In this document: positions 8,583-48,264 of the stretch, one piece after another | Position numbering within the stretch: the first letter of the stretch is position 1 | How the letters are laid out: each line of letters opens with the position of its first letter | Origin: Nannocystales bacterium | Lineage (GTDB): Bacteria; Myxococcota_A; Polyangia; Nannocystales; Nannocystaceae | NCBI GenBank assembly: GCA_050633305.1 | Contig: JBOEGF010000008.1 | Location: 350,459 to 414,458, forward strand | Length of the DNA stretch: 64,000 bases | Reading direction: 5' to 3' | Notes under the pieces: generated by a model | The model's database searches: none | Told to the model about the DNA's origin: nothing | The model's input: the letters and a program-made list of their open reading frames with translations, nothing else | Made by a program: the position numbers and the translations under genes

Positions 8583-9989
8583 ATGAGCACCACCAAGCGT
8601 AAGAAGAAGGCGAAGCGATCCTCCTCCAAGACGAGCGCGAAGAAGACGCCCTCGACAAAGAAGAAGACCGCCAAGAAGACGGCCTCCAAGAAGAAGCCAG
8701 CCGCCAAGAAAGCTCCCGCAAAGAAGAAGCCCGCCGCCAAGAAGGCCGCTGCCAAGAAGGCCGCTGCTAAGAAAGCTCCCGCCAAGAAGGCCTCTGCCAA
8801 GAAAGCTCCCGCCAAGAAGGCCGCGCCCAAGAAGGCCGCTGCCAAGAAAGCTCCCCCCAAGAAGGCCGCGCCGCCTAAGCAGGCCGCTGCCAAGAAGGCC
8901 GCTACCAAGAAGGCTCCCCCCAAGAAAGCTCCCCCCAAGAAGGCCGCTGCCAAGAAGGCTCCCCCCAAGAAAGCCGCGCCCAAGAAAGCCGCGCCCAAGA
9001 AGGCCGCTGCCAAGAAGGCTCCCCCCAGGGTCGCTGCCAAGAAGGCCCCCGCCAAGCAGGCCCCCGCCAAGGTCGCGCCAAAAAAGGCTGCGAAGAAAGC
9101 TCCCAAGCCGGCCCCCGAGGGCGTCACCGCAGCGGTGCTCCCCGAGCGGAAGAAGCTCAACAACTACTTGATGATCACGCTCGACAGCTGCCGTTTCGAC
9201 AGCTTCGTCGCCGGCAACACCAAGACGGTTGAGAAGCTCGGCGAGCTCGAGCGCCGCTACAGCTACGCCAGCTGGACCGCGCCGTCGCACTACAACCTGA
9301 TGACCGGCCTGATGCCGCACAGCTCGCCCTCAAACGTGTACGCGAGCGAGTACTACAAAGAAGACTTCTTCAAGTACGGCGAGCGTCTGGGCACCGAGGA
9401 CGCCTCGTTCCGCGAGCTGATCCCCAGCCTCTGCTTCCCGGTCTGGCTCAAGAAACTCGGCTACCACACGCATGCTCGAGTCTCGATGCCTGTGCTCAAC
9501 TCGAAGACGGGCATCAACCGCGGCTTCGACACCTACAAGCTCATGGACAAGCACAACGACATGCGGTCGATGTTCGAGACCATGCGGTTCTCAGAAGAGA
9601 AGCCCAACTTCTTCATGATGAACGTAGGCGAGACGCACTACCCCTACGCGCGCCCCACCGAGGAGAAGAACGACTGGCCCCGCATCAGCGGCGTGCATGG
9701 CGTCTTCAAGAAGCTCGATGGCAACATCAAGGACGGCAAAGTCGTCACCTCGGACGAGAAGTTCTTCGACGAGAAGAAGATGAAGGAGCTGCACGCGCGG
9801 CAGATCGACACGGTCAACTACCTCGACGACGTGTTCGAGGAGCTCTTCGACCTGGTCCCCGACAACACCTACATCACGGTCATGGCCGACCACGGCGAGC
9901 TCTTCGGCGAGGGTGGCTACTTCGGGCACGGCCCGATCAACCATGACAAGGTGTTCGAGGTTCCCTTCCTCGAAGGCAAGATCCGATGA
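8583..9989 (+). CDS. Sulfatase/alkaline-phosphatase-superfamily enzyme with an N-terminal histone-H1-like Lys/Ala/Pro-rich region
   Basis: About 180 aa of KKAAAKK/KKAPPKK repeats, then [22 protein letters not shown] and ADHGE...GH metal-binding motifs. Confidence 0.88.
8640..9110 (+). repeat. Degenerate tandem 15-bp coding repeat (AAGAAGGCCGCTGCC / AAGAAAGCTCCCCCC) encoding [10 protein letters not shown] pentapeptides
   Basis: Directly visible in DNA and protein. Confidence 0.9.
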
Positions 9990-12007
9990 TCCTCTACATT
10001 GGCCCCGGCGCTGGTTTCGTCTTTGGCGGCACCTTCCTGGCGCTCATCGCGGCGCTCTTCTCCGGCTTCGTTTCACTCTTCCTGTGGCCGATCCGGATGA
10101 TTCGCCGGACGCTGTCGGGTTCGCGCGCCTACAAGGACGCGAAGGTCAAACGAGTCGTCTTCCTGGGTCTCGACGGCTTCGACCCCAAGCTTGCCGAGCG
10201 CTTCTTGGAAGAGGGCAAGCTGCCCAACCTCGCGAAGCTCAAAGGCCAGGGCAGCTACAACCGGCTGCGCACCACGTTCCCGTGCCTGTCTCCGGTCGCA
10301 TGGTCCTGCTTCGCCACGGGCGGCAACCCGGCCAAGCACAACATCTTCGGGTTCATCAGCCGCAACCCCAAGAACTACACACCCGAGCTCTCCAGTTCCA
10401 AGGTTCGGCCGCCGTTGCGCACGCTGAAGATCCTCGGCATGGAGATCCCGCTGGGCAAACCGGTGGTCGAGATGCGCCGCAAGAGCGTGCCGTTTTGGAA
10501 GCTGTTGGGTGAGCACGACATCCACAGCACCATCCTGCGCATCCCGATCACGTTCCCGCCTGAGAAGTTCAACGGCCACGTGCTCTCGGCGATGTGCACG
10601 CCCGACCTTCGCGGCACCCAAGGCAGCTTCAGCTTCTATTCGACCGCCTACGAGGAGTCGAGCCAGAGCGAGGGCCTGCGCCTGCCGTTGGTGAAGACCG
10701 AGAGCGGCGTCATGGGCGAGGTGTGGGGACCCCCCGACCCTCGCAGCGACAAGGGCGAGCACCTCAAGCTGCCCTTCACGCTCGACAAGCAACCCGACGG
10801 CACCTACCTGTTCGAGGCCGGCTCCGAGAGCCATGTACTCACGCCGGGCAAGTACAGCGAGTGGGTCTCGATGGCCTTCTCCAGCGGCATGATGGGTTCG
10901 GCCAAGGGCATCGCGCGGCTACTCATCACGGGTACCGACCCCCACCTCGAGCTGTACATGACGCCGATCAACATCGATCCGGCGTCCCCCGCCCTGCCCA
11001 TCTCGCACCCGGCCTCCTACGCGATCTACCTGTCCAAGCTCATGGGCAGCTACTCGACGCTGGGCCTGGCCGAGGACACCTGGGCGATGAACGAGCGCGT
11101 GCTCGACGAAGACGCGTTCTTGGATCAGGCGTATCTCAACCACGAGGAGCGCGAGACCATGTTCTTCAACGCCCTGGAGAAGACCCCCAAGGGCGTGGTG
11201 GCCTGCGTGTTCGATGCCTCCGACCGCATCCAGCACATGTTCTACCGGACCTTCATTCCCGACCACCCGGGCAACAGGGACCGCGACATCGAGCCGTACA
11301 AGAACGTCATCGAGGACATGTACGTGAAGATGGACGGCCTCGTCGGTCGCGCCATGGAGAAGATCAACGAAGACGACCTCTTCTTCGTTCTCTCCGACCA
11401 TGGGTTCGAGTCCTTCGTCCGGGGCGTCAACCTCAACGCGTGGCTGCGCGAAGAGGGCTACCTGGTCCTCAAGGACGACCGCAAAGTCAGCGGCGACTAC
11501 TTCGAGCACGTCGACTGGTCCAAAACCAAGGCCTACACGGTCGGCATGGGCGGTATCTACCTCAACCGCAAAGGCCGCGAGGCTCGGGGCATCGTCAAGC
11601 CTGGCAAAGAGGCCGAGGCGCTCAAGAAAGAGCTCAAAGAAAAGCTCGAGGGCTACATGGACGAAGAGCGGGGCGAGATGGCCATCCAGAAGGTCGGCAT
11701 CTCCTCCAGCCTCTACAAGGGCCCTTACCTGGGCGCCGGTCCGGACCTGCTCATCGGCTACTGCCGGGGCTATCGCGCCAGCTGGGCTGCGGCCACGGGC
11801 GGCATCGAAGAAACCATCTTCCAGGACAACGACAAGGCCTGGGGCGGCGACCATTGCATCGACCCCGAACTGGTTCCGGGCGTGATCTTCTCCAACCGCG
11901 AAGTGGGCGTGGATGACCCGGGTATCGAGGACTTGGCACCGACGACCATGAGCATGTTCGGACTCAAGCCTCCGAGACACATGGAAGGGCGTCCGATCAT
12001 CCAGTAG
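9986..12007 (+). CDS. Alkaline phosphatase family protein (type I phosphodiesterase/nucleotide pyrophosphatase-like), N-terminally anchored
   Basis: Motifs LGLDGFD, SPVAWS, DRIQH, SDHGF and GDH. N-terminal YIGPGAG plus a TM helix. ATGA overlap with the upstream gene. Confidence 0.9.
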   Translation: MILYIGPGAGFVFGGTFLALIAALFSGFVSLFLWPIRMIRRTLSGSRAYKDAKVKRVVFLGLDGFDPKLAERFLEEGKLPNLAKLKGQGSYNRLRTTFPCLSPVAWSCFATGGNPAKHNIFGFISRNPKNYTPELSSSKVRPPLRTLKILGMEIPLGKPVVEMRRKSVPFWKLLGEHDIHSTILRIPITFPPEKFNGHVLSAMCTPDLRGTQGSFSFYSTAYEESSQSEGLRLPLVKTESGVMGEVWGPPDPRSDKGEHLKLPFTLDKQPDGTYLFEAGSESHVLTPGKYSEWVSMAFSSGMMGSAKGIARLLITGTDPHLELYMTPINIDPASPALPISHPASYAIYLSKLMGSYSTLGLAEDTWAMNERVLDEDAFLDQAYLNHEERETMFFNALEKTPKGVVACVFDASDRIQHMFYRTFIPDHPGNRDRDIEPYKNVIEDMYVKMDGLVGRAMEKINEDDLFFVLSDHGFESFVRGVNLNAWLREEGYLVLKDDRKVSGDYFEHVDWSKTKAYTVGMGGIYLNRKGREARGIVKPGKEAEALKKELKEKLEGYMDEERGEMAIQKVGISSSLYKGPYLGAGPDLLIGYCRGYRASWAAATGGIEETIFQDNDKAWGGDHCIDPELVPGVIFSNREVGVDDPGIEDLAPTTMSMFGLKPPRHMEGRPIIQ

Positions 12008-18857: not shown

Positions 18858-20552
18858 ATGACCACCCGACGCAGATTCCTCAAGTATCTGGCAACGATCC
18901 CGGCGTGCGATGCTGCGAGGCCTTCGTCCAGCGCCGATGTGTCATCGGGCACTGCCGCACGGGCTGGGCTGTTCGACGACGGCCGACCCGACATCGTGTT
19001 CATCTCGGTCGATGACCTCAACGACTGGCCCACGCCGTTCGAAGGCCCAAAGCCCACCATCGACCCTCAGGACGTGCTGACCCCGAACCTGGAGGCGCTC
19101 GCGCAGCAAGGCACGGTGTTCCAGCGGGCGTACTGCGCCGCCCCGATGTGCGGGCCCTCGCGCTCCGCCACGCTGACCGGGCTTCCGCCCTATGTCTCCG
19201 GCGTGACCCAGGCGGAGAACATCATGGTGCCGAAGACCGACGATTTCGGTCCGCTGTTGGAGGCTCCGACAACGACCCTCCCCAGGCTGCTCCATGAGTC
19301 GGGCTACCGCACCTACGGTGCGGGGAAGGTGTTTCACGGGGGGGGGTTCGGAAGCGCAGACCGAAAGTTCCCCACGTGCGGCGTGGACCCCGAAGACCCG
19401 TCGTACGACTCGTGCGCCTGGGATGACTATCTGTTCTTGAGCAAACTCGTGCCGAAGGGGGCCTGCACTCCGAGACCCAAGGAGCCGACCGACATCTCGG
19501 ATTCCGCTCTCCCCTGCCCTGGTCCGTTCGATCCGGCCACGTCGATGTTGCCCGACGCTCGCGTCGCTCGGTACGGCATCGATCGATTGAATCAGGCAGA
19601 CCTCACCGAGCCCATGTTCCTGGCGCTGGGCTTCTTCAAGCCCCACAAACAGTGGGAGGCCCCCCAGGAGTTCTACGACCTGTACCCCGATGACAGGCTC
19701 GCGGAGCTCGATGCCGCGGTCGAGCGGGCCGACCAGGACGACCTCACGTTCACCGGCTGCGTGACCCTTCGGGACGCGAGAAACTCCCCCCCGGATGCCA
19801 CCTGGGATTCCGCGACCCGGAAGGCGATTCGAGGATACCTGGCATGCGTCAGCTACGTCGACCATCTGCTCGGGACTGTTCTCGACGCCATCGCCCAGCG
19901 ACCCCGTCGAACGGTGGTCGTCCTATGGAGCGACCACGGATACTTCATGGGCGAGAAGCGTGGCTGGAAGAAGCCCTCCCTGTACGAGCGAGCAACCCGT
20001 GTCCCGTTGATCATCGCAGACACGGCCGCGCCGACGGCTCAGTCCACGTTCAAGATGGCAAGCCTGATGGACCTGCTGCCCACGGTGCTGGACTATGCGA
20101 ACGTCCCCGACCCGCTCCAGTACGGAGTGAGTCTTCGGCCGCTGGTCGAGGATGCGGACACCCCCTGGTTGCAGACGAGCGTCTTGTCGACCTTCAACTT
20201 TCAAGGTGACCTCACTCGAAGGGAGGACCAGTCATTCAACGCAGATGTGGAGCGATGCATGACCGACCAGGACGTCGAAGCGTGTGGGCCCTTCGTGCTC
20301 GCGTGCCCGACTCATCCCCCCCGGCTCTCGGGCGCTTCGTTCGCGTTGCGGACCGACCGCTATCGCTTCATCCGCTACCACGACGCTGGCGGGTTCTCCA
20401 CCCAGACCGGAGCCGATTTGCCCACGCTCGAACTCTACGACTTGCAGAACGACCCCAACGAGCGCGACAACCTGCTCGTCAACGGGATCCCCTACGGCAT
20501 GGAGACGCTGGTGGGGAAACTGTCGGCCGAGCTCGACGCCAAGCTCGGGTGA
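18858..20552 (+). CDS. Formylglycine-dependent (Cys-type) sulfatase, Tat-exported, iduronate/choline-sulfatase-like
   Basis: Tat motif TRRRFLK, ISVDDL, CGPSR...LTG, GKVFH, KPH, SDHG and ELYDL..DP.E. Confidence 0.93.
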   Translation: MTTRRRFLKYLATIPACDAARPSSSADVSSGTAARAGLFDDGRPDIVFISVDDLNDWPTPFEGPKPTIDPQDVLTPNLEALAQQGTVFQRAYCAAPMCGPSRSATLTGLPPYVSGVTQAENIMVPKTDDFGPLLEAPTTTLPRLLHESGYRTYGAGKVFHGGGFGSADRKFPTCGVDPEDPSYDSCAWDDYLFLSKLVPKGACTPRPKEPTDISDSALPCPGPFDPATSMLPDARVARYGIDRLNQADLTEPMFLALGFFKPHKQWEAPQEFYDLYPDDRLAELDAAVERADQDDLTFTGCVTLRDARNSPPDATWDSATRKAIRGYLACVSYVDHLLGTVLDAIAQRPRRTVVVLWSDHGYFMGEKRGWKKPSLYERATRVPLIIADTAAPTAQSTFKMASLMDLLPTVLDYANVPDPLQYGVSLRPLVEDADTPWLQTSVLSTFNFQGDLTRREDQSFNADVERCMTDQDVEACGPFVLACPTHPPRLSGASFALRTDRYRFIRYHDAGGFSTQTGADLPTLELYDLQNDPNERDNLLVNGIPYGMETLVGKLSAELDAKLG

Positions 20553-37751: not shown

Positions 37752-39734
37752 ATGAGGCATCCAGCCCTGAAGACACGCCCCCGATGGTCGGGGCCCGGCA
37801 TTGGCCGAACCGCAGCGACGACGCTCGCGACCATCGTCGCGTTGGTCAGCGGTACGACGGGATGCGGCAAGACCCCGAAGACCGACACGGACGTGATCGT
37901 GCTCGGCTTCGATGGCATGGACCCCAAGTTCGTGCGGCGGCATGCCGACCGGCTCCCCAACCTGATGCGTCTCGCCGAGCAGGGCGGGTTCTCAGAGTTG
38001 GAGACCGTCATGCCTCCGCAGTCGCCCGTTGCATGGTCGACGGTCATCACGGGCATGACTCCGGGGGGACACGGCGTCTTCGACTTCGTGCACCGGCACC
38101 CCGGCGACGTCACGCCCTTCAGCTCCATGGCTGAGGCAATTCCCCCCGAGTACACGCTCGAGGTCGGCAACGTCGTCATCCCGCTGACCGGAGGCGAGAC
38201 CATCCCCTTGCGGAAGGGCGAACCGTTTTGGAAGAAGTTGGGCGACGCCAACATCCCCTCAACGATGATGAAGATGCCCACCGACTTCCCGCCGCTGCCC
38301 GCGACCAACGGCGCGGTCTCGGGCATGGGCACGCCCGACATGCTCGGGTCGTTCGGAACGTTTCAGTTCTTCACGGACGACCCCGCGGAGTACGTCAAAG
38401 AAGAGGTTTCGGGCGGCGAGTTGTATCGCGTGGACGTGATTGGCGATCACGTCACCACCTCGCTCTCCGGCCCGATCAACACCTTCTACAAGGACGAGCC
38501 TCGCTCCGAGGTTCGGATGGAGATCGACGTCGACCGCAACCGACGGACCGCCCGTATCGAGATCGGCGAGGACGTGATGGTGCTGAGCGAGGGCGACTGG
38601 AGCGAGTGGGTCGAGCTCGACTTCGAGCTCGTCCCCTACATGATGTCCGCCAGCGGCATCGTGCGCTTCTTCCTCAAAGAGGCCTATCCAAACTTCAAGC
38701 TCTACGCGAGCCCGATCAACATCAACCCCAAGCACCAAGAAGTCCCCATCAGCGAACCGCCGGAGTTTGCGGCCGAGATCGCGGAGGAAGTGGGCCTCTT
38801 CTACACGCAGGGGATGGCCGAGGAGACCAAGGCACTCTCAGCCCACGTCATCTCGCGGAACGACTTCATCGCCCAGGCCAACCTGGTGTTCGATGAGGAG
38901 ATCGACATCTACGACCACCTTCTGGACCAGTACCAGAAGGACGGTGGTGGCTTCATGTTCTACTACTTCTCGACCACCGATCAGGCGGCCCACATGTTGT
39001 GGGGCGACTACGAGAAGGAACTGATCCCGTTCTACGAGCGCGCCGACAAGGTCGTCGGACACACGCTCGACACGATCGGCGATGACACCACGTTGATGGT
39101 GATCAGCGACCACGGGTTCCAGCGGTTCGACCGCGAGGTCCACCTCAACACGTGGCTCATGGACGAGGGCTTCCTCGCCCTGGACGACCCCAACAACGCC
39201 GGTCCCACCCCAGGGTTCCCGCACGTGGACTGGGAGCAGACCCAGCTGTACGCGATGGGCCTCAACGGCCTGTACTTCAACCTCGAGGGTCGCGAAGGCG
39301 AAGGCAGCGTCACCGAAGACGAAAAAGCCGCGATCGAGGCCCGACTCGAGAAGAAGTTGCTCGCCTGGGTCGACCCCGAGACCGGCAAGAACGTCGTGCT
39401 CAAGCTCTACCGGCCCGAGGAGATGTTCGAGGGCCAACCCTCCGCCCAGATGGAGTTTGCGCCCGACTTCCTGGTTGGCTTCGCGCCGCCGTACCGCATG
39501 TCCCCCGCCACCGGCCTGGGTGCGGTTCCCTTCAACCAGATCAACGACAACCCCGACGAGTGGATCGGCGACCACTGCATGGCGCACGAAACCGTTCCCG
39601 GGGTGCTGTTCTCCAACCGTAAAATCATCGGTGAGAAGCCCCGCCTGCACGATGTGCCGGTGACCGTGCTTCACGCCTTTGGAATCGAAAAGCCGTCCCA
39701 GATGGTCGGCCAAAACGTCATTGAGTCCCGCTAA
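37752..39734 (+). CDS. Alkaline phosphatase family protein (phosphodiesterase/nucleotide pyrophosphatase-like), probable lipoprotein; paralog of 9986-12007
   Basis: Motifs LGFDGMD, SPVAWS, GTPD, DQAAH, SDHGF and WIGDHC. Lipobox-like TTGC. Confidence 0.9.
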   Translation: MRHPALKTRPRWSGPGIGRTAATTLATIVALVSGTTGCGKTPKTDTDVIVLGFDGMDPKFVRRHADRLPNLMRLAEQGGFSELETVMPPQSPVAWSTVITGMTPGGHGVFDFVHRHPGDVTPFSSMAEAIPPEYTLEVGNVVIPLTGGETIPLRKGEPFWKKLGDANIPSTMMKMPTDFPPLPATNGAVSGMGTPDMLGSFGTFQFFTDDPAEYVKEEVSGGELYRVDVIGDHVTTSLSGPINTFYKDEPRSEVRMEIDVDRNRRTARIEIGEDVMVLSEGDWSEWVELDFELVPYMMSASGIVRFFLKEAYPNFKLYASPININPKHQEVPISEPPEFAAEIAEEVGLFYTQGMAEETKALSAHVISRNDFIAQANLVFDEEIDIYDHLLDQYQKDGGGFMFYYFSTTDQAAHMLWGDYEKELIPFYERADKVVGHTLDTIGDDTTLMVISDHGFQRFDREVHLNTWLMDEGFLALDDPNNAGPTPGFPHVDWEQTQLYAMGLNGLYFNLEGREGEGSVTEDEKAAIEARLEKKLLAWVDPETGKNVVLKLYRPEEMFEGQPSAQMEFAPDFLVGFAPPYRMSPATGLGAVPFNQINDNPDEWIGDHCMAHETVPGVLFSNRKIIGEKPRLHDVPVTVLHAFGIEKPSQMVGQNVIESR

Positions 39735-39757
39735 CAACGCCTCTTGGAGGAAACGCC

Positions 39758-39943
39758 ATGCCCGCCGTCAAGCTCGACAAATCCATCTACACTCGTCTCA
39801 AGAAGTGCGCCGAACTGGCCGGTTACTCGTCCACCGATGAGTTCATCGTGCACGTGCTCGAAAAAGAGATGTCCAAGCTCGACGATGCCGAGAGCGACGA
39901 AGACATCGCCGCCAAGCTCCAGGGTCTCGGCTACATCGACTAG
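39758..39943 (+). CDS. 61-aa ribbon-helix-helix (CopG-like) protein with a C-terminal LxxLGY motif
   Basis: Strong SD GGAGG 7 nt upstream. beta-strand (AVKLD), helix, GYSS-helix pattern. Ends EDIAAKLQGLGYID. Confidence 0.8.
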   Translation: MPAVKLDKSIYTRLKKCAELAGYSSTDEFIVHVLEKEMSKLDDAESDEDIAAKLQGLGYID

Positions 39944-39973
39944 CAGCCCCGCTTCGTTCTCGTCTCGTTGTCT

Positions 39974-40813
39974 ATGGACGCCGTGATCAATACCGTCGGG
40001 CAGCTCTGCGGTGCCCTCTTCGACGGAATGATGGTGCCGATGCAGGCGCTGTCGCTCGGTTGGAGCCTCGCTGTCATCTCCACGCTCATGGGCGCGGTGA
40101 TGCTCGTGGTGTTCAAGTACACGGGCGACCCCGAACTCTTGTTCACCTCCATCAAGCGCATGCAGGCGTACATGATGGAGATGCGGCTGTACGACCGCGA
40201 GCCCAAGCTCGTGTTCAAGGCCATGGGCAACCTCTTCTGGTGGAACTTCAAGAGCATCATGTCGCTGCTCGGCCCCATGCTCTGGGTGACCGTGCCGATG
40301 CTCCTGATGTTCTTTCAGATGGAGCACTACTACGGGATGCGCCCCGTCGAACCGGGCGAGAGCGCGGTGGTCACCGTCAAGTTCGGCAGTCCCGACGATA
40401 TCGACGGACCCGTCACGCTCGAGGCCGGCGATGGCGTCGAAGTGGAGACCGGTGTGGTCCTTGCCACCCGCCGGTCCATGGCGAGCTGGCGTATCAAGGG
40501 CCTGGAGGAGGGCGAGCACACCCTCACCGTGCACGTCGGCGACTCGACCGCCGAGAAGTCCTTCCACGTGGGCACCGAACGCACCCGCGTTAGCAAGCGC
40601 CGGGCCCACGCCGGACCCGATGCGTTCGTGTATCCGATCGAGCCCCGACTCGAGGCCGGCCCGATCTCATGGATCGACATCCGCTACCCGACCACCGACA
40701 CGCCTTGGCTGGGCACGTCGATGCACTGGCTGTTGTGGCTCGTGATCGTCTCGCTTGTCGGCGCGCTGTTGGTCCGCTGGGCCGTCAACCTGGTACGTCC
40801 CAACACCCTGTAG
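39974..40813 (+). CDS. Membrane protein resembling DUF106/EMC3/TMCO1 (Oxa1 superfamily) with an inserted Ig-like domain
   Basis: TM1, a Met-rich helical hairpin, TM2 GPMLWVTVPMLLMF, a beta-rich insert, then TM3 HWLLWLVIVS. Confidence 0.6.
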   Translation: MDAVINTVGQLCGALFDGMMVPMQALSLGWSLAVISTLMGAVMLVVFKYTGDPELLFTSIKRMQAYMMEMRLYDREPKLVFKAMGNLFWWNFKSIMSLLGPMLWVTVPMLLMFFQMEHYYGMRPVEPGESAVVTVKFGSPDDIDGPVTLEAGDGVEVETGVVLATRRSMASWRIKGLEEGEHTLTVHVGDSTAEKSFHVGTERTRVSKRRAHAGPDAFVYPIEPRLEAGPISWIDIRYPTTDTPWLGTSMHWLLWLVIVSLVGALLVRWAVNLVRPNTL

Positions 40814-43532: not shown

Positions 43533-45185
43533 ATGAGACGCGGTGCGATCCTGACCGCGGTGTTGGGCACAACCGGCTGTTACAGCGGCGCGACAGTGGA
43601 CGCCTCAGCTGTCGGCGAGACATCCGCTGGATTCGACGACGGGGGCTCCGGCGGCGAGACCGACGACGCCGGAGGAGACGGCTCGGACGACTCCGGAACC
43701 GACGACCCCGCCGCAGAGCCTACCGAGCTCAGCCGATGGCGCCGCCTCACCGCGAGTCAGTACGCCAACAGCATCGAGGTGCTGCTCGGGACGCGCCCGG
43801 ATATCGAGTCTTTCATCGCCGATACCGCCCCCGGGGACAGTCCTTTTCCCGCCAACGCGGGGATCGCCCCTCAGTCGGTGGACATCGACATCTATTGGCA
43901 GAGCGCACTCGCACTCGCCGAGGAGGTCACCGCCGAGCCCAGCGGGCTGTTCGACGGATGCGACCCGGTCACGGACGGCGAAGATACCTGCGTCGATGGG
44001 TTCATCGACAGCTTTGGCGCTCGGGCGTTTCGGCGTCCGCTCACCGAGCCGCAACGCAACGCACTGCGAGGTCTCTTTGACCAGGGCGCGGAGCAGAACC
44101 TGGAGCGGGGGCTCCAGATGGTCATCGAGGCCGTGCTGCAGTCCCCCAATTTCTTGTACATCGTCGAGTTTGGCCTCGACGCGGGACCCGACGGGCGCGC
44201 GGAGCTCGATGGCTACGAGCTTGCAACACGGCTCGCGTTCTTCCTGACCGACGCCACCCCCGATCCTGCACTCCTGAGCGATGCCGAGTCCCTGCACGAC
44301 CCGGAGGTTCTGCTCTCGCACGCGGAGAGGCTGATGCAGACGGAGGCGTTTCTCGCGGCTCTCGTCGAAGCGCATTTGCATCTGACCCACATCTCGCGGA
44401 TCGACAACGTCTCGCGAGCCGAGACCGAGTTCGACGACGAACTCAGAGACTCGATGAAGACCGAAGCACGCTCGTTCCTCGAAGAGGTCCTCACCGACCC
44501 CGGTACGGTGGAAGGGCTGTTCGTCACCCCCCTCGCCTTTCCCGACGAACGACTCGCCGCAGACATCTACGGGTTTGGCGGGACCGGCGAGGGCATGTTG
44601 GTCGACGATGGGTCGCGCGCAGGGTTGCTCACCCTCCCCGCCTTCCTGGCCTCCTCGCCGCCGATCGAGTCCGACTTCGAACCGGTCTACCGCGGCAACG
44701 CCGTCCGAGCTCGGCTGCTGTGCGACACCCTGCCCCCTCCGACCGTCGACACCAACTTTCCCGATGCTGGCGACCTGTCCCCGCGCGAGCGCCTGCGACA
44801 ACACCAGGAAGACCCCAGCTGCGCCGGATGCCACGTCCTGATGGACAACATCGGTTTCGGCCTGCTCAACTACGACGACTTGGGTCGATTCTCCCAAGCC
44901 GACGCGTTTGGCCCAATCGACGCGTCGGGCTACGTCCTCTCCGACGGCGAAGTCGAGTTCGGCGACGTCCAGGAGATGGCGGAGGTCCTCTCCACCCTGC
45001 CCCAGGTTCGAGACTGCATGGCGACGCAGCTGTTCCGCCTCGCGACGGCACGTGAACCCGACGAAGCCGACAACACCTCGCTCGCGCCCGTCCACGACGC
45101 GCTCAGCGAAGACGGCGGCGACATCCGAAAAGCGATCACCCAGCTCGTCCTGAGCGAGTCCTTCCGAACCCGGCGAGGAGACTGA
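43533..45185 (+). CDS. DUF1592/DUF1588/DUF1595-family lipoprotein with a CxxCH heme-binding motif
   Basis: Motifs RRLTASQYANSI, RAFRRPL, LQSPNFLY, YELATRLAFFL, R.GLL, PVYRG and CAGCH. Confidence 0.92.
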   Translation: MRRGAILTAVLGTTGCYSGATVDASAVGETSAGFDDGGSGGETDDAGGDGSDDSGTDDPAAEPTELSRWRRLTASQYANSIEVLLGTRPDIESFIADTAPGDSPFPANAGIAPQSVDIDIYWQSALALAEEVTAEPSGLFDGCDPVTDGEDTCVDGFIDSFGARAFRRPLTEPQRNALRGLFDQGAEQNLERGLQMVIEAVLQSPNFLYIVEFGLDAGPDGRAELDGYELATRLAFFLTDATPDPALLSDAESLHDPEVLLSHAERLMQTEAFLAALVEAHLHLTHISRIDNVSRAETEFDDELRDSMKTEARSFLEEVLTDPGTVEGLFVTPLAFPDERLAADIYGFGGTGEGMLVDDGSRAGLLTLPAFLASSPPIESDFEPVYRGNAVRARLLCDTLPPPTVDTNFPDAGDLSPRERLRQHQEDPSCAGCHVLMDNIGFGLLNYDDLGRFSQADAFGPIDASGYVLSDGEVEFGDVQEMAEVLSTLPQVRDCMATQLFRLATAREPDEADNTSLAPVHDALSEDGGDIRKAITQLVLSESFRTRRGD

Positions 45186-45188
45186 CCG

Positions 45189-46538
45189 ATGACTCTCATC
45201 ACCCGACGCAACCTCGCCCGCATGCTTGGCGGCAGCGCCGCTGCTGCTGCTCTCACCCCGTTCATTCCCCGGAGTTCGTACGCTGGCGGCAGCGTCTCCC
45301 CGAAGCGGATCCTCGTCATTTTCCAAGGCCTGGGCTACCTTGAGGACTCGTTCTGGCCCACCTCGGGCCCCTCGGGCGCCCCGACGGACTTCACCCTCGG
45401 TGCCACCCAGTCGGTGCTGGAGCCCTACCGCGATCAACTCATCTACCCCGACGGCTTGGTCCTGTACGGCGCTCCGTACTACTTCCCCGACGACGACAAC
45501 GAGCACGCCAGCGGCGGGTCCATGTGTTTCACCGGTTCGCTCAAGGACGGTTTCGCGACGGGAGCCTCGTTCGAGCAACCGATCGCCGACCACCTCTTCA
45601 AGACGCAGGGCGGTTCGTACCGCCACGTTGGACTGGGCGTCAACGGCGTCGCCACCGAGCACCATTCCAGCTTCTTCTATGGAGACCAACAGCCCGTCGT
45701 TCCGATCAACGGCCCCGTCGCGGCGTTCGACAACCTGTTCTCCGCCCTCGACATCGGGGAGCTCGACATCGAAGCGCTGCAGCGGCTACGCGCTCAACGT
45801 CGAAGCGTCATCGATGTGGTCCGCGACGAGCTGAACGTCGTGCACAACAAAGTCGGCACGGTCGAGAAGGACATCCTCGCGCAACACCTCGACCACCTCC
45901 GGGCCCTGGAGGAGCGTGTGACCGACTTCCAGATCGAGTGCACCCTCCCCGACGAACCCGCGGGACCCACCGACGATGCGGCTGCGATCGATGCGCAGAG
46001 CGACCTCATCGCGAATGCGTTCGCATGTGGCCTGACCAACGTCATGACGCTGCAGCTCGGACACGTCGACGGCAACATCAGCATGATCGAGGGCCTCAAC
46101 GCCCACGGCACGACCCACGCGGTCGGAGAGACCAACGGCGCGCCCGAGATCCTCGAGGACCATCGCGCGATCGACCGTTGGTGGGCCGATCGGTGGCTCC
46201 ACCTGCTGGACGCCCTCTCCTCGGTGCAGGAGGCGGACGGGACGTTGCTCGACAACACCCTCATCGTCTGGGGCACAGACACCACCACGGGGACGAGCTA
46301 CTCGACGGGGCCGCACCGACACTGGCGGATGCCCTACTTCATGGCTGGCGGAAGCAACTGGGCGTTTCCAACCGGGCGCTACCTCGAAATCCCACACCCG
46401 GACGGGGTCAGCCGAGAGGAGTTTGAGTTGTGGCAGACGAACCATCGCCTGTACTGCTCGATCCTTCAGCGCGCCGGGCTACCGGTGGACACATTCGGCA
46501 ACATGGACAACGGCAGCGGCACGCTGCCCATGCTCTGA
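45189..46538 (+). CDS. DUF1552-family protein (Tat-exported), partner of DUF1592
   Basis: ITRRNL twin-Arg signal, HLDHLRALE, AFACGLT, HGTTH and DGTLLDNT. Directly follows the DUF1592 gene. Confidence 0.92.
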   Translation: MTLITRRNLARMLGGSAAAAALTPFIPRSSYAGGSVSPKRILVIFQGLGYLEDSFWPTSGPSGAPTDFTLGATQSVLEPYRDQLIYPDGLVLYGAPYYFPDDDNEHASGGSMCFTGSLKDGFATGASFEQPIADHLFKTQGGSYRHVGLGVNGVATEHHSSFFYGDQQPVVPINGPVAAFDNLFSALDIGELDIEALQRLRAQRRSVIDVVRDELNVVHNKVGTVEKDILAQHLDHLRALEERVTDFQIECTLPDEPAGPTDDAAAIDAQSDLIANAFACGLTNVMTLQLGHVDGNISMIEGLNAHGTTHAVGETNGAPEILEDHRAIDRWWADRWLHLLDALSSVQEADGTLLDNTLIVWGTDTTTGTSYSTGPHRHWRMPYFMAGGSNWAFPTGRYLEIPHPDGVSREEFELWQTNHRLYCSILQRAGLPVDTFGNMDNGSGTLPML

Positions 46539-46569: not shown

Positions 46570-48264
46570 CTACTGCTCGGCGGCCTTCGTGTCGCCGGGC
46601 TCCGGCGTAGCCTCGGCCGACCCCGAATCCGGAGCCTTCTTCGGCTCCGCAGCTGCGCCTTCCGGCACCGGCTTCGCCGCGGGGTCGGTCGGCGCTTTCT
46701 CGGCGGTCCCGGCGTCGGCTGCAGGGGTCTTGCCGTCCGCTGCAGGGGTCTTGCCGTCCGCTTCGGGGGTCTCACCGTCCGCTTCGGGCTTTTCACCGTC
46801 GGCCGCCGGGGTCCCACCGTCTGCGGGTGGTGCCACGTCCTTGCGCTTCGGGTTCGCCGCGCCGTCGGGATTCCCTTTGCCCGCGGCGAGCTGCTTCTGC
46901 GCGAACGCCAAAGTCTCGCCCTGCAACCGATGCATCCGGAACGGAACGCGAACCTTGCCGCCGAAGATGTCGGGGCTCCAGTACTCCCAGACGACCTCCC
47001 CCTCGGGCGTGACTTCGAACGCACGACCCCGCTGAGAGCTGACCACCAGCGTTCCGCCGTTGGGCAGACGCTGTGACAGCCCCCGGATGTTGGAGAAAAA
47101 GTCCTCGTCCTTGTACTCCCAGACGATCTTGGACGTCGACGGGTCGAGTTCCACGACCCGCGACCAACGCCGCCTGCGACCGTTGTCGAACACCAACAGG
47201 TTTCCGTTGTCGAGCTGCTCGGGGTCGTGCTGTTTCTGCAACTCGCCGGGGCCCCAATGCCACTTCGGCTCGTGCGTCGTGCGGTCGAGAACCACGACCA
47301 TGTTCATCTCGCGGACGGAGGTGATGATGTCGCCCTCGTTCCAAACACCCTCGATGTCCTTCTTCGCGAAGTTGAGCGTGTTGGCGTGGAAGATGTCTCG
47401 GCCGAAGAGCACCCGCCCCTCCGCCTCGTCGAACCCGTCTTCATCCTCATCGTGGGCAAGTCCGCCCCGAGGCGCTTTGCGGGAGAGGCTCTTGCGAACG
47501 TGCGCCTTGAACTCCGGCATGTCCTGGAGAGCATCAAAGAGCCAAAACTCCTCCTCGACCTCGCCGTCGAGGCCGAGAACCACAATGCCGTTGTCGAGCA
47601 GGTCGAAGTTCTGGCCATCGAAGCTCGCGTGCCGACCATGCTCGACCAACCCCCAGACTTTTCCGTCTTCGGCGATCGAGAAGTCGTGGTGGAACGCCTT
47701 CTTCACTCCCCACACGGTGTTCGAGTCCCAGTCGATCTTCACGAAACCGGTGCGAGCGTTCACGGCATAGAGGTTGCCCGTGGCGTCCATCTTGGCGATC
47801 GCCCAGCCACGCTTGGGGCCCGGGACGTAGTCCGTAGACCACGCATGCAGGACCTCGCCCTCGTTGTTGATGATCCGAGCCTCGCGGAGGACCTTGCCCC
47901 CGCCCGCCCGGCGGAACTTCCGACCCCATGCGCATGGGTTGTACAGAGACAGGCCCGAGTGAGCCTTGGCCTCGTTGTTCACGGTGGTCCCGACCTTCCC
48001 CCGGTCTTCCTCGGTGATGTCGACCGCACCGATGTAGCCGAGCGACTCGAGGTTGCCGTGCCCTTTTCCTCGGCGACGACCCTTCCGGCCCCGGCGCTTC
48101 CGCCTCTTGCCGCTCTTCGTGTCGGCTTCTTCCTCGTCGGTCTCCTCCGCGATGGGCTCGTCTTCCTCCGAACCCGACAACTTCACGGTTCCCGAGGCGA
48201 ACAAAACAGCAATCACGCCACCAACCGCGGCAGCACCGATCAGACCCGATTTCACGGCCGACAT
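46570..48264 (-). CDS. Arylsulfotransferase (ASST)-family beta-propeller protein, N-terminally anchored
   Basis: Motifs HHD, FHANT, QHDP...NGNLLVFDNG and QRLPNG.TLV. TM anchor, Arg-rich segment, LESLGYIG and a C-terminal PAADGK repeat tail. Confidence 0.88.
   Translation of the reverse strand: MSAVKSGLIGAAAVGGVIAVLFASGTVKLSGSEEDEPIAEETDEEEADTKSGKRRKRRGRKGRRRGKGHGNLESLGYIGAVDITEEDRGKVGTTVNNEAKAHSGLSLYNPCAWGRKFRRAGGGKVLREARIINNEGEVLHAWSTDYVPGPKRGWAIAKMDATGNLYAVNARTGFVKIDWDSNTVWGVKKAFHHDFSIAEDGKVWGLVEHGRHASFDGQNFDLLDNGIVVLGLDGEVEEEFWLFDALQDMPEFKAHVRKSLSRKAPRGGLAHDEDEDGFDEAEGRVLFGRDIFHANTLNFAKKDIEGVWNEGDIITSVREMNMVVVLDRTTHEPKWHWGPGELQKQHDPEQLDNGNLLVFDNGRRRRWSRVVELDPSTSKIVWEYKDEDFFSNIRGLSQRLPNGGTLVVSSQRGRAFEVTPEGEVVWEYWSPDIFGGKVRVPFRMHRLQGETLAFAQKQLAAGKGNPDGAANPKRKDVAPPADGGTPAADGEKPEADGETPEADGKTPAADGKTPAADAGTAEKAPTDPAAKPVPEGAAAEPKKAPDSGSAEATPEPGDTKAAEQ

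Follow-up and report, generated by a model that had tools for sequence, protein, structure and literature searches.

A conserved bacterial module of two AlkP-superfamily enzymes, an LGY-tailed small protein and a DUF106-related membrane protein, with a possible role in sulfuryl export

The window analysed here, a 64,000-nucleotide stretch of DNA from a Nannocystales bacterium, carries at 37752..40813 three co-oriented genes separated by gaps of 23 and 30 bases, which a sequence-only reading had taken for a three-gene envelope system. We find that they belong to a conserved module whose true core has four genes: two paralogous enzymes of the alkaline phosphatase (AlkP) superfamily, AlkP-A and AlkP-B, a small protein ending in an LGY tail, and a DUF106-related membrane protein with an immunoglobulin (Ig)-like insert, DUF106-Ig. 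The module is real, conserved and undescribed in the open-access literature, and the combination fits no known system. We propose that it exports activated sulfuryl groups, in some form, to periplasmic transferases, a reading that we regard as evenly balanced between right and wrong. The features of the window on which the argument draws are as follows (TM, transmembrane helix).

37752..39734, plus strand: AlkP-B, 660 aa, a predicted exported AlkP-superfamily enzyme of the nucleotide pyrophosphatase/phosphodiesterase (NPP) branch and probable lipoprotein (Cys38), with Ser91 as putative nucleophile and a two-metal site
39746..39750, plus strand: GGAGG, Shine-Dalgarno-like as read from the sequence, preceding the small gene
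39758..39943, plus strand: small protein gene, 61 aa, predicted cytoplasmic, with a ribbon-helix-helix (RHH)-like N-terminal part and an acidic-helix LGY tail; Tyr59 is encoded at 39932-39934
39974..40813, plus strand: DUF106/Oxa1-superfamily membrane protein gene, 279 aa from the ATG, with TM1, a predicted cytoplasmic hairpin (53-97), TM2, a predicted extracytoplasmic Ig-like insert (about 122-250) and TM3
9986..12007, plus strand: AlkP-A, the membrane-anchored paralogue, with a YIGPGAGF N-terminal motif, one TM helix, a basic stretch and a predicted cytoplasmic catalytic domain
8583..9989, plus strand: Thr-type sulfatase-fold protein, predicted cytoplasmic, in which Thr replaces the formylglycine Cys, with a Lys/Ala-rich N-terminal extension; candidate input enzyme
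46570..48264, minus strand: arylsulfate sulfotransferase (ASST), predicted membrane-anchored, with an LGY motif after the anchor; probable client and not core

The three closely spaced open reading frames (ORFs) at 37752..40813 were recovered as first described, as was their strongly C/G-ending codon style, the G+C content of third codon positions (GC3) being 0.88, 0.82 and 0.90 against a genome median of 0.78 for 2867 long ORFs, a rough baseline that is biased low by the use of stop-to-stop ORFs. The first gene, which had been read as encoding an AlkP-superfamily lipoprotein, matches PF01663 above cut-off (E 6e-35) and has a lipobox-like sequence, T-T-G-C at Cys38, that is atypical at -3; the third, read as a 3-TM protein, has hydrophobic segments at 28-46, 95-113 and 253-271. 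The second and third genes match no Pfam or NCBIfam family above cut-off, and matches to DUF4199 and T4SS SepA, weak and far below cut-off, were rejected. A promoter and terminator scan gave nothing exceeding shuffled controls, the sequencing runs consulted listed no RNA set with this sequence, and viral contigs searched for relatives of the membrane protein had none; a close relative of this protein is assigned to Myxococcota.

Two samples were used to describe gene context. A search with the small protein gave at least 587 genomic loci, the best 80 of which were kept for neighbourhood analysis and span Acidobacteriota, Myxococcota, Planctomycetota, Gemmatimonadota, Armatimonadota, Eisenbacteria, Calditrichota, Aminicenantes and others, while a phylum sample of 201 genomes contains the membrane-protein gene in 18, here called cassette genomes. 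Of the 78 loci whose downstream DNA is long enough to tell, 77 have the membrane gene adjoining the small gene, and among the 75 that extend at least 2 kb upstream, 65 have an AlkP gene nearby. Among the 17 cassette genomes other than this one, 16 have the small gene directly upstream of the membrane gene, and likewise 16 have an AlkP gene no more than 1.5 kb from the membrane gene. Moreover, where the small and membrane genes stand alone, both AlkP paralogues are found elsewhere in the genome (10/10, one copy being partial and one containing stops). The linkage of the three genes is thus far beyond chance; asked whether homologues occur in unrelated contexts with no AlkP linkage, the neighbourhood counts left the proposed dedicated module standing. 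The membrane-protein family is itself broad, with 1178 clusters at 50% identity (E up to 1e-30).

What has to be changed is the number of genes. AlkP-A orthologues (E below 1e-200) and the membrane gene occupy exactly the same 18 of the 201 genomes, the other 183 having no such orthologue. A further seven genomes have only a weaker relative, which lacks the N-terminal motif, and no membrane gene. The usual gene order is AlkP-A, AlkP-B, small gene, membrane gene. In this genome AlkP-A is displaced from the other core genes, and at locus L031 it is contiguous with them. The suspicion that the 8.6-12.0 kb locus belongs to the same system was therefore sound, and the three-gene system holds as far as the linkage of its members goes, the core having four genes with AlkP-A added.

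Some genomes depart from this arrangement. G082 (L128, L129) has AlkP-A followed directly by the membrane gene and a sulfotransferase gene, with no small gene there and AlkP-B on another contig, so the small gene may be dispensable or may lie elsewhere. In seven genomes (L114-L120) the only AlkP-A/B relative is a single exported protein, and DUF106-Ig is absent; the gene of this relative adjoins those for LGY-tailed sulfatase-fold or AlkP proteins in six of these genomes and lies near polysaccharide chain-length (Wzz/Wzc-like) genes in three, which suggests a variant system.

Both AlkP enzymes keep the two-metal ligands and the Ser nucleophile position, the roles of the active-site residues being those we presume from NPP motifs. 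AlkP-A, like AlkP-B, matches PF01663, and over 33 sequences its invariant residues are Y4, G6-G10, D63, S102, D413, H417, D471, H472 and H623; in 33 orthologues of AlkP-B, D54, D410, H414, D453, H454 and H608 are invariant and S91 is kept in at least 90%. The model of AlkP-B (predicted local distance difference test, pLDDT, 90.7) has ENPP1 and the Xanthomonas NPP as its nearest folds, at 10-13% identity and a TM-score of 0.37-0.43 by query, and no solved relative was found by sequence at E 0.01. The term phosphodiesterase is for both proteins a family label, and the implied cleavage of nucleotide phosphodiesters or pyrophosphates is putative here.

The two paralogues differ in their N-termini. 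Of the 33 AlkP-B orthologues 30 begin with a hydrophobic segment, 18 have a lipobox-like motif and six a twin-arginine-like motif, and AlkP-B is predicted to be exported. At the start of AlkP-A stands an invariant Y-[IV]-G-P-G-A-G motif, with a single TM helix and a basic stretch after it; the residue before the motif Tyr is Ala in 60 of 66 homologues, as at a signal-peptidase site, and the copy in this genome has no signal peptide. The positive-inside rule predicts an N-out topology with a cytoplasmic catalytic domain. The pair would then work on opposite faces of the inner membrane with both active sites intact, as predicted from their sequences.

Small stand-alone proteins resembling the AlkP-A anchor were also seen (L170:1894-2220 and L174-L187). 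They consist of a signal peptide, Y-x-D-P-G-x-G, a TM helix and a basic helix, belong to no Pfam or NCBIfam family and often lie just upstream of a gene for a 460-aa methyltransferase-like protein. The idea that genomes with a lone AlkP use such a protein was rejected: the DNA pattern occurred in 12 of 23 genomes, no more than in the control, only one of 16 loci held a real small protein, and the relatives mostly precede the methyltransferase-like gene and not sulfur genes.

For the membrane protein, a DUF106/EMC3-like assignment had been proposed. Profile comparison gave the archaeal DUF106 protein MJ0480 as the only significant match in the PDB (E 8.5e-08, and 4e-11 with 97 sequences), covering the N-terminal helix, TM1, hairpin and TM2, with a weak second stretch at TM3. 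The core of the Oxa1 superfamily is described as three TMs with a cytoplasmic hairpin (PMC8675477), and the model of the membrane protein (pLDDT 89.9) has helices at H28-50, H53-72, H77-121 and H252-274. The insert of about 130 residues between TM2 and TM3 gave Ig-like matches, and Foldseek with the whole model returned Ig-like domains only. VIA-align rows were filled by helical hairpin matches, among them 7tut_8 (Z 7.9, root-mean-square deviation 4.0, 131 aligned), which we take to be a multipass-translocon chain, the name being unconfirmed, and which is tied with unrelated helical rows. PF01956 was above its curated cut-off in none of 26 members, nor at this gene in the genome scan; one Atlas cluster at 0.86, with PF01956 on 17% of its members, is a lead only. 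On sequence homology, from which the sidedness is also taken, we consider the protein to be a member of the DUF106/Oxa1 superfamily with an inserted outer Ig-like domain.

A structural model of the complex was made with three chains, AlkP-A (1-660), the small protein and the membrane protein, AlkP-B being absent from the job. The pair of AlkP-A and the membrane protein scored 0.65, against 0.00 for the best of three controls, with runs agreeing in at least 62% of contacts and partner pLDDT of at least 78; of 157 solved pairs 116 reach the score mark, as do 2 of 215 mismatched ones, figures that are only a rough guide for a three-chain job with custom alignments. No solved complex of the AlkP-A/hairpin kind turned up, which makes it unlikely that the score comes from a memorised structure. 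The predicted interface sets hairpin residues 61-80 against AlkP-A 342-354, 399-401, 180, 198 and 30-41, with most contacts made by the folded catalytic domain (342-354, 399-401). E69, R71 and L72 of the membrane protein are conserved, P342, Y348 and G354 of AlkP-A are invariant, and the AlkP-B helix corresponding to the interface helix of AlkP-A differs. AlkP-A is thus predicted to dock on the cytoplasmic hairpin. No residue of the small protein was named at the interface, and replacing AlkP-A in a control gave a score of 0.00, so the three-chain model gives no support for binding of the small protein to the membrane protein, nor is it evidence against it. At L031:10223-12940 and in P0148 a fusion in one reading frame joins the membrane protein to an LGY-tailed sulfatase-fold protein of the Thr type, which is related to one encoded on contig C18 of this genome.

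The docking also bears on a first alternative, that DUF106-Ig is a dedicated insertase or assembly factor for the N-out anchor of AlkP-A or of other envelope enzymes, with nothing handed across the membrane and each AlkP acting separately on its own side. The homology to MJ0480, with its three-TM core and hairpin, would suit such a role, as would the description of the hairpin as the substrate-recognition site of Oxa1-family proteins (PMC8675477), the short N-out tail of AlkP-A, here without a signal peptide, and the presence of AlkP-A residues 30-41 at the modelled interface. However, the genome already encodes an ordinary YidC, and contacts made mostly with the folded AlkP-A domain, through residues conserved in AlkP-A and different in AlkP-B, suit a standing complex; similar Y-x-D-P-G-x-G anchors stand alone in genomes that lack a DUF106-Ig gene, and the sulfotransferase and LGY tails are left unexplained. 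We consider this alternative unlikely.

The LGY tail links the core to a wider set of proteins. The small protein has 469 relatives and ends in LQGLGYID, and GLGY with its tyrosine is kept in all 80 loci, which were selected by a different motif. An acidic helix ending in L-x-x-L-G-Y recurs as an added tail on other proteins: the adenosine 5'-phosphosulfate (APS) kinases (CysC) encoded in these operons, a second RHH-like protein and sulfatase-fold proteins that are exported. One AlkP-B carries it at the N-terminus, ASSTs have it at either end, and all three ASSTs examined in this genome show an LGY-like motif. Twelve of the 17 cassette loci were examined, and in 11 of them the gene immediately upstream of AlkP-A is divergent and ends with the tail; these genes mostly encode short exported-looking proteins, with a tetratricopeptide repeat (TPR) match in two of three scanned. 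A profile of the tail matched in 15 of 17 cassette genomes, in seven of seven genomes with a lone AlkP relative and in two of 16 others picked by genome label, and found no significant match among solved structures. Two DUF2061 proteins beside the cassette (L072:11263-11556 and L086:11064-11360) also carry an LGY tail.

Among sulfatase-fold proteins the tail goes with the type of nucleophile, which was scored by alignment in 48 proteins from this genome and the loci. Thirty carry LGY, of which 27 have Thr, one Ser, one Asn and one an unscorable nucleophile, and in the C/S-x-P-x-R motif none of the 29 scorable LGY-bearing proteins has either the Cys or the Arg. None of the ten Cys-type (formylglycine) sulfatases carries LGY. 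The other eight proteins without it comprise six with Thr (three of the 8583 type and three fragments preceding tail-bearing ORFs), one with Ala and one unscorable.

The recurrent neighbours of the cassette are sulfur genes and not phospho-donor genes. Of the 18 cassette genomes 16 encode a sulfotransferase (PF13469) dependent on 3'-phosphoadenosine 5'-phosphosulfate (PAPS), and in 15 its gene follows the membrane gene immediately; the two that lack it, this genome and G063, both have a Thr sulfatase-fold protein of the 8583 type. The 8583 protein matches PF00884 (E 3e-11), has T-A-P-S-H at the nucleophile motif and is a remote relative of STM4013 (NF038075, 61 bits, below the cut-off of 250). 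Its N-terminal extension (8583-9116 of the window) comprises about 180 Lys/Ala/Pro-rich residues that match models of the histone H1-like HC2 and is present in the close relatives at L030 and L031 and absent from most homologues. Across the 80 loci the sulfotransferase (13 loci), an 8583-type protein beside the cassette (16) and an extra AlkP pair (10), mostly interleaved with sat and cysC, never occur together, which suggests three interchangeable input modules; the pattern follows lineage, and G147 and G157 hold two of the modules genome-wide. PAPS-synthesis genes (sat/cysC/cysDN) lie within 10 kb in 14 of the 80 loci, with fewer than one in 80 expected by our estimate of one or two such loci per 5 Mb genome.

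ASSTs are only moderately enriched, with 12 of the 18 cassette genomes encoding one as compared with 61 of the 183 others, and lie near the cassette in four of the 80 loci. The gene at 46570 matches PF14269 above cut-off (E 1e-17) and has the motif LESLGYI. The 46.6-48.3 kb locus, which had been counted as part of the system, is then a likely client, and its place in the core falls away. The likeliest client locus is a separate envelope cluster on contig C18 of this genome, which contains an ASST, an LGY-tailed exported sulfatase-fold protein, a sulfotransferase, cysC, cysNC and cysD (the last identified from the ORF list). The same cluster (L109:7178-19999, L110:1-15176) also holds membrane proteins (one of them DUF2079), a methyltransferase, an inositol-monophosphatase-family gene, a CitMHS-family transporter and a GT2. 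On contig C4 (L111:8779-19423 of G000) genes for a polyketide synthase (PKS)-like protein, an acyl-carrier-protein-like protein, an LGY-tailed cytoplasmic AlkP, an alpha/beta hydrolase and a second Thr-type 8583 paralogue lie together, possibly for a sulfated polyketide or a small-molecule sulfate shuttle.

A second alternative stays within sulfur metabolism and has the AlkPs as NPP-like hydrolases of PAPS, APS or 3'-phosphoadenosine 5'-phosphate (PAP), serving turnover or sensing, with the small protein as an RHH transcription factor and LGY as a docking tag that tethers the regulator and APS kinase; the tail may indeed be a docking tag only. The NPP-type fold and metal site agree with this, as do the RHH-like N-terminus of the small protein with its conserved Lys5 and the second RHH-LGY gene that heads sat-cysC operons in four of the 80 loci. 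The RHH signals are weak: the small protein has no Pfam match, PF01402 is found on one of 120 relatives listed, the best solved structures are 1y9b (E 0.046) and pArc (E 0.12), both weak, and its Atlas clusters are auto-named CopG at 0.94-0.95. Upstream of AlkP-A in 62 loci, many of these regions being coding, the top shared repeat reached 12 against 6-9 in shuffles, with no clear operator. A cluster of Pyrococcus yayanosii (pych_17520-17560) is described as combining a CopG-type protein, ATP sulfurylase, APS kinase and a type I phosphodiesterase (PMC8268124), like the sat-AlkP-cysC-AlkP arm upstream of some cassettes; its phosphodiesterase is speculated to degrade the by-product pyrophosphate (PPi), and the available portion of that paper, in contrast to our module, mentions neither an exported paralogue nor DUF106-Ig. 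Turnover gives no reason, however, for an exported paralogue or for a membrane protein that always travels with AlkP-A, and leaves the LGY tails of exported Thr-type enzymes and ASSTs unexplained, and we judge it improbable.

The export of sulfuryl groups is our preferred reading. Linkage, co-occurrence, homology and motif distribution are computed results and the topology and the contact of AlkP-A with the membrane protein are predictions, while the transferred group, its direction, the carriers and every chemical step are only what we infer from them. PAPS would be unusable outside the cytoplasm by aryl-donor enzymes, and therefore an input enzyme would charge a carrier in the cytoplasm with sulfate, the likeliest carrier being the small protein's LGY tyrosine; the input enzyme would usually be the PAPS-dependent sulfotransferase and here probably the 8583 Thr-type protein. 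AlkP-A, docked on the cytoplasmic hairpin, would take the sulfate on Ser102 and hand it to a cargo, either a lipid or its own Tyr-bearing N-terminal arm, that might cross through an Oxa1-type groove. Outside, AlkP-B would reload the sulfate onto the LGY tails of exported transferases (Thr-type sulfatase-fold proteins and ASSTs), which would then sulfate envelope glycans or proteins.

Three lines of background together suggest such an export relay: AlkP-fold proteins are described as adding sulfate to glycans in Halobacterium (PMC11980604), ASSTs as needing aryl sulfate donors and accepting tyrosine peptides, with their natural substrate unidentified (PMC13426309, a 2026 review), and insertases as scrambling lipids via a groove also used for proteins (PMC11047089). 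The version borne by tyrosine throughout is possible and, in our view, doubtful. Sulfotyrosine is an aryl sulfate, and a Thr or Ser enzyme of the sulfatase fold cannot set sulfate free by the formylglycine mechanism and would need to transfer it instead. Taken jointly and just as tentatively, the Oxa1 fold may have been repurposed for a sulfotyrosine relay in which LGY tails on both sides of the membrane are swinging aryl-sulfate carriers, the invariant N-terminal Tyr of AlkP-A is flipped through the groove to take sulfate out, and sulfotyrosine tails are the missing natural donor of these ASSTs and of a large class of Thr-type proteins misannotated as sulfatases.

Several observations weigh against export. 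Oxa1-superfamily proteins have a hydrophilic groove with a conserved basic residue; in 75 sequences of the membrane protein the conserved polar positions are S36, N91, K/R93, Q/H115 and S260, with no invariant basic residue or Arg in the TM core. In 41 of the 80 loci none of the three input modules is present in the available DNA, many flanks being short. This genome has no orthologue of the linked sulfotransferase, relatives of which occur in 23 genomes without the cassette, and ASST is missing from six of 18 cassette genomes. Seven genomes with LGY-tailed proteins and an exported AlkP relative have no DUF106-Ig gene, and G027 has five LGY tails with neither an AlkP relative nor a DUF106-Ig gene, so LGY enzymes can work without the module. 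The nearest solved folds, ENPP1 and NPP, are phospho-enzymes, and the genomes are related, so that the counts overstate their independence.

A last alternative, to which we give little credence, has the same machine running inward to salvage periplasmic sulfate esters and regenerate PAPS, or moving a phosphoester (as LtaS-/MdoB-type relays do). The direction of transfer cannot be read from the sequence, regeneration of PAPS from PAP is described for some PAPS-dependent sulfotransferases (PMC13426309) and the Thr-type LGY proteins weakly match phosphoethanolamine transferase and LtaS models, far below cut-off, but the sat and cysC genes interleaved with AlkP genes make PAPS, which suits export, and the neighbours that recur are those of sulfur and not of phospho-donors.

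Among known systems the logic closest to a sulfuryl export module is, by analogy, that of Cpz8/Cpz4 in caprazamycin biosynthesis, where a PAPS-dependent sulfotransferase charges an aryl shuttle that is then used by a PAPS-independent ASST (PMC4257720); the shuttle there is a small PKS-made pyrone, and the available portion of the paper has no membrane protein, AlkP pair or peptide tail. Agl30/Agl31 of Halobacterium salinarum are AlkP-fold, sulfatase-like proteins that sulfate a surface glycan (PMC11980604) and are likened to our enzymes by description only. They differ in that one is membrane-bound and one cytosolic and that the glycan is dolichol-linked; no membrane relay is described in the available portion, and the words PAPS and donor are absent from the main text.

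DsbD-type relays pass from a cytoplasmic donor through a membrane core to a periplasmic hand-over to many clients, and are like the module in logic only, as they carry electrons on cysteines and have unrelated folds. MJ0480/Ylp1 (PDB 5c8j), EMC3, TMCO1 and Get1 belong to the same three-TM Oxa1 branch with a cytoplasmic hairpin, and Get3 docks on the hairpin of Get1 much as AlkP-A is modelled to do. Unlike them, the module protein is bacterial, has the Ig-like insert between TM2 and TM3, falls below the PF01956 cut-off, is tied to two AlkP enzymes and coexists with YidC; no EMC6-like gene is among the recurring neighbours. DUF106 has been described as archaeal (PMC8887752). The AlkPs share PF01663, the two-metal ligand set and the fold with the NPP branch (ENPP1, Xanthomonas NPP, phosphonoacetate hydrolase), and are set apart by their low identity, a Ser nucleophile, a large beta-rich insertion (about 110-330) and their predicted occurrence as a paralogue pair on opposite faces.

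In the open-access literature we found no description of the module, of sulfatases bearing the LGY motif or of any bacterial DUF106 protein linked with genes of this kind. The novelty lies in the combination, as each part comes from a known superfamily and the mechanism is our inference. If our reading is true, the module would give a concrete route from PAPS to the periplasm, and its membrane component would be a three-TM member of the Oxa1 family in bacteria that does something besides general insertion. Many annotated sulfatases in Acidobacteriota, Myxococcota, Planctomycetota and related phyla would then add sulfate instead of removing it, which would affect sulfur-cycle and glycan-degradation annotation.

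Two other parts of the window were noted in passing. The gene at 18858-20552, outside the module, encodes an ordinary sulfatase of the Cys type (C-G-P-S-R) that has a twin-arginine-like signal and lacks an LGY tail. Between the cassette and the ASST, at 43533-46538, a DUF1592/1588/1595/1585 gene is followed by a DUF1552 gene.

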